Assembly: GCF_057098645.1 (NCBI RefSeq)
Contig: NZ_CM169472.1
Reading direction: 5' to 3' (one strand)
Length of the DNA stretch: 64,000 nt
The position numbers are program-made. This document shows, in pieces, positions 54,001-57,000 of the stretch (position 1 is its first letter; each line of letters begins with the position of its first letter).

Positions 54001-57000
54001 TGCTATTGGCCCGGATCATGGAGCCAGTCAGGTAGAATTCTTTCGTCGCGTATATGCGGAAATTCCCGAATTTAACGCTGAACTTGAGCGTAACAATATC
54101 GTGAATTTACAGTTTTTCCTTGGCTACCCGGTAGGCTTTTTCTCTACCAGGCCCATTGATAAATTGACTGCACTTCAGGGAACCACCTGGCGAACAGCCA
54201 GTTTCTGGCATCGGGCTTATTTAACTCATACGGGGGCAAAAACCGTAACCTTACCGTGGAATGAGCAAATTACGACAGCACTCCGCGACGGACAACTCGA
54301 TGGCCTAATGGTCAATCTTGATAGCGGATATGACATCCATGCTGAACGTGCTGCGCCGAATGTGTTGCTCTCCCCTTCGCTCTGGCTTGGTCATGTTTAT
54401 CTGTTGGTAATGAATAAACAAACGTGGGAAAACCTTGATAACAGAGATCGTGAGGCTATTCAACGAGCGGCCATTACAACCGAGAAAGCGCTGGGCAAGG
54501 CATTAGATAACAACCTGATCAGCATGGTAAAAACGCTTGAGCAGGAAGGTGCACAGGTTCGCTATTTGAAAAAATCAGAGCTGGACGCCTGGCAGAAAGC
54601 GATTGGTTATCAGCAAGAGCAAACTCAGTGGGTAGAAAAGCAAAATAATGAAGGCGTGGAGAAAGCCGGGGGAGTCATGCAAAAAGTTGCCAATATACTT
54701 GATGAAACAATGCGTTAAATTGGTAGTGCGCCCATGAACTTCATGGGCGCTTTACATGATTAACGAGTTACGGCTTCGTTTTCTTTATTTTCTTTCACCC
54801 GCTTAAAGTTCACATCCATTTGCGGGTACGGGAAGCTGATACCGGCGGCATCAAATTCACGTTTAATACGCTCCAGCACATCCCAGTACACGTTTTGCAG
54901 ATCGCCGCTGTTGCTCCAGACGCGGACCACGAAATTAATCGACGATGCACCAAGTTCGTTCAGGCGCACAGTCATTTCGCGATCTTTCAAAATGCGATCT
55001 TCAGACTGGATAATATTGGTCAGGATCTGCTTAACCTGATCGATATCGGAATCATACGCCACGCCAATAATAAATTCGTTACGGCGAACTGGCTCGCGGG
55101 AGAAGTTAATAATATTTCCGGCAATAATTTTACCGTTCGGAATAACGATAATTTTACCGTCTGCAGTACGCATGGTGGTGGAGAAAATCTGCACACTCAG
55201 CACAGTACCGGCTACGCCGCCGAGGTCAACATATTCTCCGGCACGGAACGGGCGGAACATGACAAGTAACACGCCAGCGGCCAGGTTAGACAGTGACCCC
55301 TGCAAAGCCAAACCAACAGCTAAGCCTGCGGCACCGAGTACAGCAATGACGGACGCGGTTTGTACACCCACGCGTCCCAGTGCAGCGATTAGCGTAAAGG
55401 CGATAATACCGTAACGGACTAATGCAGAAAGAAAATCAGCAACAGTGGCATCGATTTTACGGGAGATCATCAGGCGATTCACCGCGTTGGAAATCATCCG
55501 CGCGATAATCAAACCAACGATGATGATCGCGAGTGCCGCCACGATGTTTACTGCATAACTTAGCAGCAGCGCCTGGTTAGCCACCAGCCAGCTTCCCGCG
55601 CCGTTTATGCTATCGACAACATTCAAATCTTCCATTCAATATTCCTTTTCAACTGACTCAAAATGGAGAAATACACTCCGCCGCCTTATGACGGGCAGTC
55701 TGACAAGGGTAAACAATAAAGCATAATTTTGCCAAATAGATCACAGATTTCTCATCTGCATCACCTTGCTTTTGGCGAAAAAAAGACCCGCAGAGCGGGC
55801 CTTGAGATAAGCAGAAAGGAATGACTTACAGAACGTCGATCGCGTTCAGTTCCTGGAATGCTTTTTCCAGACGAGCGATCATCGAAGTCTGACCGGCACG
55901 CAGCCATACGCGCGGATCGTAGTATTTCTTGTTCGGCTGATCTTCGCCTTTCGGGTTACCCAGCTGACCCTGCAGATAAGCTTCGTTCGCTTTGTAGTAG
56001 TTCAGAACGCCTTCCCAGGTTGCCCATTGGGTATCGGTATCGATGTTCATTTTCACTACGCCGTAGCTTACGGAGTCTTTGATTTCCTGAGCAGTAGAAC
56101 CGGAACCACCGTGGAATACGAAGTTCAGGCTGTTGTGCGGCAGGTTGTGTTTCTTAGAAACATATTCCTGAGAATCACGCAGGATGGTCGGAGTCAGAAC
56201 CACGTTACCCGGCTTGTAAACACCGTGTACGTTACCGAAGGACGCTGCGATGGTGAAACGCGGGCTGATTTTGCTCAGCTCGGTGTATGCGTAATCAACG
56301 TCTTCCGGCTGGGTGTACAGTGCAGAAGCGTCCATGTGGCTGTTGTCCACGCCGTCTTCTTCACCACCGGTGCAACCCAGTTCGATTTCCAGAGTCATGC
56401 CGATTTTGGACATGCGCTCCAGGTATTTAGAGCAGATTTCGATGTTCTCTTGCAGAGATTCTTCAGACAGGTCGATCATGTGAGAAGAGAACAGCGGCTT
56501 GCCGGTAGCAGCGAAGTGTTTTTCACCCGCGTCCAGCAGACCGTCGATCCACGGCAGCAGTTTCTTCGCGCAGTGGTCAGTGTGCAGGATAACCGGAACA
56601 CCATAATGTTCAGCCATCTGGTGAACGTGATGCGCACCAGAGATCGCGCCCAGGATAGCAGCACCCTGCGGAACGTCAGATTTCACGCCTTTACCAGCGA
56701 TAAAAGAAGCACCACCGTTGGAGAACTGAACGATAACCGGCGCTTTAACTTTAGCAGCGGTTTCCAGTACGGCGTTGATGGAGTCAGTACCGACGCAGTT
56801 TACTGCTGGCAGTGCGAAGTTGTTTTCTTTTGCTACCTGGAAAACTTTCTGTACGTCATCACCAGTGATTACGCCAGGTTTTACGAAATCAAAAATCTTA
56901 GACATGTCTCTTGTCCTGTATCGTCGGGCCTTATACTCGTCATACTTCAAGTTGCATGTGCTGCGTCTGCGCTCGCTCACCCCAGTCACTTACTTATGTA

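Follow-up and report, generated by a model that had tools for sequence, protein, structure and literature searches.

A long-tailed natural mscS allele in the argO–mscS interval of Escherichia coli, probably part of an old structural alternative to the K-12 arrangement

The window analysed here, a stretch of 64,000 nucleotides from contig NZ_CM169472.1 (NCBI RefSeq assembly GCF_057098645.1), contains an interval between argO and mscS that differs markedly in size from its K-12 counterpart, the spacer between both genes measuring approximately 2.2 kb in the window versus 138 bp in K-12. The only substantial open reading frames with homologues in this interval are those of the 309-aa protein and of the DctP-like protein (Table 1). 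Their G+C contents of 44.5 and 45.0% lie below the 49.5–51.2% of the neighbouring genes. Given that about 100 bp upstream of argO are common to all forms of the interval, the non-shared block extends from approximately position 52590, a left junction placed by local pairwise alignment, to positions 54784–54790. Within this common upstream sequence, the motif ATTAATATTATCAATTTCCGCTAAT..CGCGATATAGTCT recurs beside argO across genera.

Table 1. Features of the argO–mscS interval, in coordinates of the window
Feature	Position	Strand	Basis or remark
argO, left flanking gene	51849..52484	-	ORF, annotation
argO-upstream sequence, diverged but present in all arrangements; left limit of the non-shared block	52485..52590	.	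K-12 and form B aligned locally with the window
Gene for a 309-aa hypothetical protein	52691..53620	+	ORF
Orphan gene for a TRAP substrate-binding protein of the DctP family; 347 aa when read from the RefSeq start	53675..54718	+	convergent with mscS; start of the longest ORF at 53642
GC-rich hairpin between the convergent stops of the binding-protein gene and mscS	54726..54752	.	fold
mscS, 291-aa allele	54760..55635	-	ORF; RefSeq annotation WP_000389820.1
Variant mscS 3' end: codons 283–291 NKENEAVTR and stop (K-12: DKAA and stop)	54760..54789	-	DNA alignments

The binding-protein gene and mscS have 41 nt between their stop codons, within which the hairpin folds with −20.1 kcal/mol (z = −5.45). 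It forms the core of an inverted repeat (54713-54738/54740-54765) and is conserved in four of the loci compared (L002, L004, L005 and L012). A scan for consensus terminators did not flag this hairpin because it is devoid of a T-run; it is nevertheless likely to act as a transcription terminator common to the binding-protein gene and mscS, in place of the K-12 mscS terminator. Both convergent genes end with CGT TAA (Arg, stop) symmetrically about the hairpin, forming a 26-nt imperfect inverted repeat at 54713-54765. The two genes likewise end with Arg-stop in the distant locus L012, which may be a coincidence. On the other side of mscS, the spacer towards fbaA (55636-55825) comprises 190 bp in the window and 357 bp in K-12, where the additional 167 bp consist of two REP-like palindromes and a duplicated fbaA terminator region; the difference seems to be an ordinary presence or absence of REP/BIME elements.

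The binding protein belongs to the DctP type of TRAP substrate-binding proteins according to Pfam family PF03480 (E-value 6.2e-20, 72.1 bits, cut-off 23.4) and NCBIfam family NF037995 (61.7 bits, cut-off 50), and its relatives in the PDB are TRAP binding proteins with solved structures. In contrast to DctP-type TRAP systems, no gene for the membrane components DctQ or DctM adjoins it, neither in the window, where it is surrounded by argO, the 309-aa gene and mscS, nor in the other genera examined, and the protein scores far below the cut-off of the dctP subfamily TIGR00787 (20.5 versus 175.05 bits). Its dN/dS values of 0.04–0.24 point to a gene maintained by selection. The region encoding the signal peptide (53675-53760 in the window versus 2301-2390 in locus L002) is far more diverged between these two E. 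coli arrangements than the remaining gene.

The 309-aa protein yielded no match in Pfam, NCBIfam or the PDB sequences. We found 399 homologues, which are approximately 50% identical in other Proteobacteria, and dN/dS values of 0.12–0.26 for its gene. The family, with members of about 300 aa, is widespread at roughly this identity in Pseudomonas, Bordetella, Paracoccus and Rhizobiales, and it includes longer members of about 470 aa that carry an N-terminal DUF7256. An assignment to DUF1963, a UniRef label of some distant homologues, was not reproduced by Pfam.

The mscS gene of the window encodes a member of the MscS family. The protein matched NCBIfam NF007662 (PRK10334) with 620.6 bits at a cut-off of 321, profile positions 1–285 of 286 being covered, and the Pfam families PF05552, PF21088, PF00924 and PF21082 all scored above their cut-offs, with transmembrane helices, beta domain and C-terminal alpha/beta domain present. 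Its reading frame closes with NKENEAVTR, while MscS of the K-12 strain C600 (WP_000389818.1) comprises 286 aa and ends in KRVKEDKAA; the K-12 3' end is also spelled out by a published cloning primer, GTGAAAGAAGACAAAGCTGCGTAA (PMC4440785). PDB chains of the 286-aa E. coli protein align with residues 1–284 of the window protein, D283 standing opposite N283, and the alignment then ends. The original prediction had given the reference as a 286-aa protein with the tail KRVKEDKAA and had noted a deviating 291-aa form in the window. The open reading frame, the C600 protein, the PDB chains and the primer bear this out, and the C-termini differ as well when the gene is aligned with reference mscS. In comparison with K-12 MscS (YggB; PDB 2OAU and 6RLD), residues 1–282, the set of domains and the NCBIfam assignment are the same, whereas the window protein is five residues longer, carries NKENEAVTR instead of DKAA, and has another terminator and another downstream neighbour.

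Based on the identity of residues 1–282 to the solved structures, the window protein is predicted to be a heptameric, tension-gated channel. An AlphaFold2 model of the 291-aa monomer, built with an alignment of 29 sequences, was poor throughout, with a mean pLDDT of 56.6 and values below 50 also in the beta domain. A literature search retrieved nothing relevant on allele WP_000389820.1 or on the combination of argO, mscS and TRAP. The long-tailed mscS is an ordinary natural allele that is already catalogued in RefSeq, and no functional consequence of it is evident.

At the DNA level, the transition between both tail types is abrupt. The coding strand of the window reads GTG AAA GAA / AAT AAA GAA AAC GAA GCC GTA ACT CGT TAA, that of K-12 GTG AAA GAA / GAC AAA GCT GCG TAA. 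From 54790 rightwards, identity to K-12 is 100% over more than 200 nt, and all codons through 282 match. Positions 54787-54789 (plus strand ATT, codon N283) stand opposite GTC (D283) of K-12, positions 54784-54786 (plus strand TTT, K284; codon 284 AAA) are common to both, and the sequence left of 54784, comprising five codons, the stop and the terminator, cannot be aligned to K-12. DNA homology to K-12 mscS thereby stops within codons 283–285 (approximately 54781–54790). The short tail of the Escherichia lineage E1V33 reads ENKAA, so that N283-K284 occurs in both tail types. In the roughly 500 nt of mscS that precede the tail, no difference separates the window, K-12, O157:H7 and Combat11I9, and form B strains differ at only two sites.

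The position of this boundary coincides with the end of constraint on the protein. In an alignment of 29 MscS sequences from Enterobacteriaceae, D274 and V275 were the last invariant residues and conservation faded up to residue 282, beyond which both sequence and length (283–295 aa) varied. The tail is thus hypervariable across the family, irrespective of the presence or absence of the binding-protein gene. The natural series of tails, with proteins of 283, 286 and 291 aa in Escherichia and 283–295 aa in the family, marks the end of MscS constraint at approximately residues 275–282. Among the constructs deposited in the PDB, those of 292 and 294 aa with extra C-terminal residues are still heptamers, and others end at residues 280–281. 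A channel lacking residues 266–286 (Delta266-286) was reported to be partly protective against downshock and defective in the recovery from inactivation (PMC4440785). Such laboratory constructs, C-terminally tagged or truncated, are altered at the same end of the protein as the window allele; they were engineered, however, whereas the window allele is natural and has unchanged beta-barrel residues up to 282. Rearrangements may enter the last mscS codons because selection does not act there, and the five-residue difference in tail length is probably neutral for channel function.

To what extent both tail types occur in the species was assessed in 5426 complete E. coli genomes, using at least 80% coverage as threshold for a junction match. 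The K-12 junction was present in 5207 genomes (of 5425), and the junction joining the 3' end of the binding-protein gene to the long mscS tail in 214 of 5426 (approximately 4%). The 309-aa gene was additionally found in 57 of these 214 (57/5426), being intact in 37 and split in 20. Since 5421 of the 5425 matching genomes exhibited one of the two junction types and four neither, the long tail is almost completely linked to the binding-protein gene. WP_000389820.1 is annotated in many strains of diverse phylogenetic position, O145:H28, SMS-3-5 and PCN033 among them. In the 20 genomes with a split 309-aa gene (those listed are O145 or O145:H28), the gene is in two pieces and broken at the position corresponding to 52925, a site that is intact in the window. 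In RM13514 (O145:H28; locus L089), the one such genome that was inspected, a P4-like element with genes for a tyrosine integrase, a DEAD/DEAH helicase and a polarity-suppression protein interrupts the 309-aa gene, and GGCGGAA is repeated at the junction.

Synteny was furthermore compared with representative genomes of other species, E. albertii being reached via the 309-aa protein; outgroup sampling is incomplete because E. fergusonii and Salmonella are absent among the 80 loci compared. Several other genera also have a DctP homologue in the argO–mscS interval, encoded on the opposite strand to mscS. Amino acid identity to the window protein is 94% in the Escherichia lineage L004, where the 309-aa gene is also present (87%), 88% in E. 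whittamii and 82% in Enterobacteriaceae bacterium UBA5654. It amounts to 54–61% in four Citrobacter genomes, Klebsiella spallanzanii, Kluyvera, Silvania and two other Enterobacteriaceae; Kluyvera cryocrescens has a fragment only. Against L004 and E. whittamii, dS is 0.17 and 0.31 for the binding-protein gene and 0.17 and 0.46 for mscS, and these comparable values indicate a similar depth of divergence for both neighbours. Even within E. coli, the form B and form C alleles of the binding-protein gene differ by a dS of 0.15, a depth as between Escherichia lineages.

The mscS tails partly follow this distribution. They read KENKESEAVTR in L004, KENKEREAVTR in E. whittamii, HEKKEDEAVAPR in UBA5654 and ..EEPSVTR in a Pluralibacter genome devoid of the binding-protein gene. 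A tail of the type ..EAVTR or ..EAVAPR goes together with the group of binding-protein orthologues of 82–100% identity, also in a distant Enterobacteriaceae genome (L012) whose MscS is only 84% identical. The presence of the binding-protein gene alone does not dictate the tail, as gene-carrying Citrobacter species have short tails. A K-12-type short tail and terminator are present in the Escherichia lineage E1V33 and similar short tails in Citrobacter, indicating that the short form is also old. E. albertii (locus L090, 5787-7000) displays a fourth arrangement composed of argO, a frameshifted 309-aa gene, a hairpin of its own and mscS, without the binding-protein gene; its MscS of 283 aa has a third tail, KRVKEQ, the divergence again starting after codon 282.

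The original prediction took the changed C-terminal tail, found where an accessory module abuts, as consistent with an insertion or recombination junction in the last mscS codons. The location of the boundary, at codons 283–285 and directly at the extra genes, was correct, but the insertion as cause of the tail was not supported by the data. Under the insertion scenario, the K-12 form is ancestral in E. coli and the right junction of a recently acquired, foreign two-gene block replaced the last codons of mscS. The lack of the block in 96% of complete E. coli genomes, its G+C content below that of the flanks and the sudden switch from complete identity to no homology at codons 283–285 are all compatible with this. 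However, no integrase, transposase or recombinase gene was detected inside the block by ORF, Pfam and NCBIfam analysis, and neither terminal inverted repeats nor a target-site duplication was found at the junctions at 52590 and 54784–54790; the only repeats were short matches of 12–17 nt, none of them at these junctions. The region of the 309-aa gene matched chromosomes only, at the argO–mscS locus and without copies at other sites; the junction query hit a median of one place per genome, and two places were on plasmids. The occupation of the same slot by a DctP-like gene in several genera, the dS of this gene between Escherichia lineages, comparable to that of mscS, and the occurrence of the same tail type beside an orthologue in a distantly related genome also argue against a recent foreign insertion. 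In particular, the dS of 0.15 between form B and form C is too deep for a single recent arrival. We therefore consider a recent insertion unlikely, and this reading of the argO–mscS block is probably the wrong way round.

We hypothesize instead, with a probability of roughly 0.7, that the argO–mscS interval exists as several old structural alleles, that the window has one of them and K-12 a reduced one, and that the boundary between the alleles enters the dispensable end of mscS. Synteny, dS values, tails, the E. albertii form and the lack of mobility genes and repeats favour such an old resident block. The gene-carrying allele would comprise an orphan DctP-type gene, here together with the 309-aa gene, that is convergent with mscS, a single hairpin would terminate both convergent genes, and mscS would have its own tail. 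In the reduced K-12 allele, both genes would have been lost and mscS would be left with another terminator and the four residues DKAA after E282. Constraint on MscS would reach no further than residues 275–282, the end of the C-terminal beta-barrel, so that rearrangements of the interval could extend into the last codons without harm to the channel. The K-12 arrangement is thus probably the most reduced form of an old resident and variously trimmed block, and we infer that the gene-carrying form is ancestral. Several observations count against this explanation: the low G+C content of the two extra genes is one often seen in imported DNA, no single simple deletion in the long form would yield the approximately 75 bp of K-12-specific sequence, and the outgroups are incomplete. 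Moreover, the age of the short form in E1V33 and Citrobacter weighs against a firm direction of change.

It is also conceivable, albeit less probable than a recent insertion, that no junction lies inside mscS at all. Point mutations together with small in-frame indels would then account for the divergence of an unconstrained, fast-evolving tail, and the extra genes would have their boundary downstream of the stop codon. The hypervariability that the tail shows in all genera, whether or not the neighbouring gene is present, fits this assumption, as do the N283-K284 shared by the long tail and the short tail of E1V33, the length difference of exactly 15 nt, TAATCA following next in both alleles, and the short tails of the gene-carrying Citrobacter species. 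On the other hand, the mscS body of E. coli has 0–2 differences in its final 500 nt, followed by a tail with a difference at almost every site, and gradual divergence would not be so abrupt. The near-complete linkage of the tail type to the downstream arrangement in E. coli likewise speaks against a tail that diverged on its own.

A further point counts against the reading as old structural alleles with a neutral tail. Among the long-tailed forms, the pattern KExKExEAV..R is fairly well kept even at saturated dS, which speaks against full neutrality and hints at some constraint instead. A bolder and improbable extension would be that the structure of the argO–mscS interval is a trans-species polymorphism, comprising at least four arrangements with an MscS tail of their own, that has long been kept by selection rather than drift and in which the long charged tail co-evolves with the convergent binding-protein gene. 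If so, the link might consist in the shared terminator, or in the tail acting on the cytoplasmic cage at its base, the reported place of FtsZ binding. Finally, an assembly or annotation artefact, in which a 3' frameshift or misjoin falsely extends the mscS reading frame, found nothing in its favour and is refuted by the identical junction in 214 independently completed genomes, the same protein accession in many of them and a downstream DNA that is a different sequence and not K-12 sequence in a shifted frame; the tail difference is thus real and no read error.

If the window indeed carries an old structural allele, homologous recombination in the flanking genes would subsequently carry such alleles between lineages. 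Strains of the three arrangements show a mosaic of single nucleotide polymorphisms in argO, chiefly in the 5' part of the gene, and together with the dS of the binding-protein gene within E. coli this fits old alleles shuffled by homologous recombination in flanking core genes. In this respect, the locus resembles ordinary indel polymorphisms of E. coli core intervals, which likewise present discrete alternatives between two core genes with mosaic flanks and without mobility machinery. In contrast to those, the boundary here enters a core gene by a few codons, resulting in a protein tail that is specific to each arrangement. The bearing on biology at large is small. Nevertheless, the end of the K-12 "reference" MscS is one of several natural versions, what looks like an insertion when compared with K-12 can represent the older form, and the junctions of a polymorphism can fall inside genes wherever the last residues are dispensable. 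As a side observation, E. coli E69 (locus L007) shares only 89% DNA identity with other E. coli in mscS but 99.4% in the adjoining fbaA, which suggests that this strain carries an imported mscS segment.
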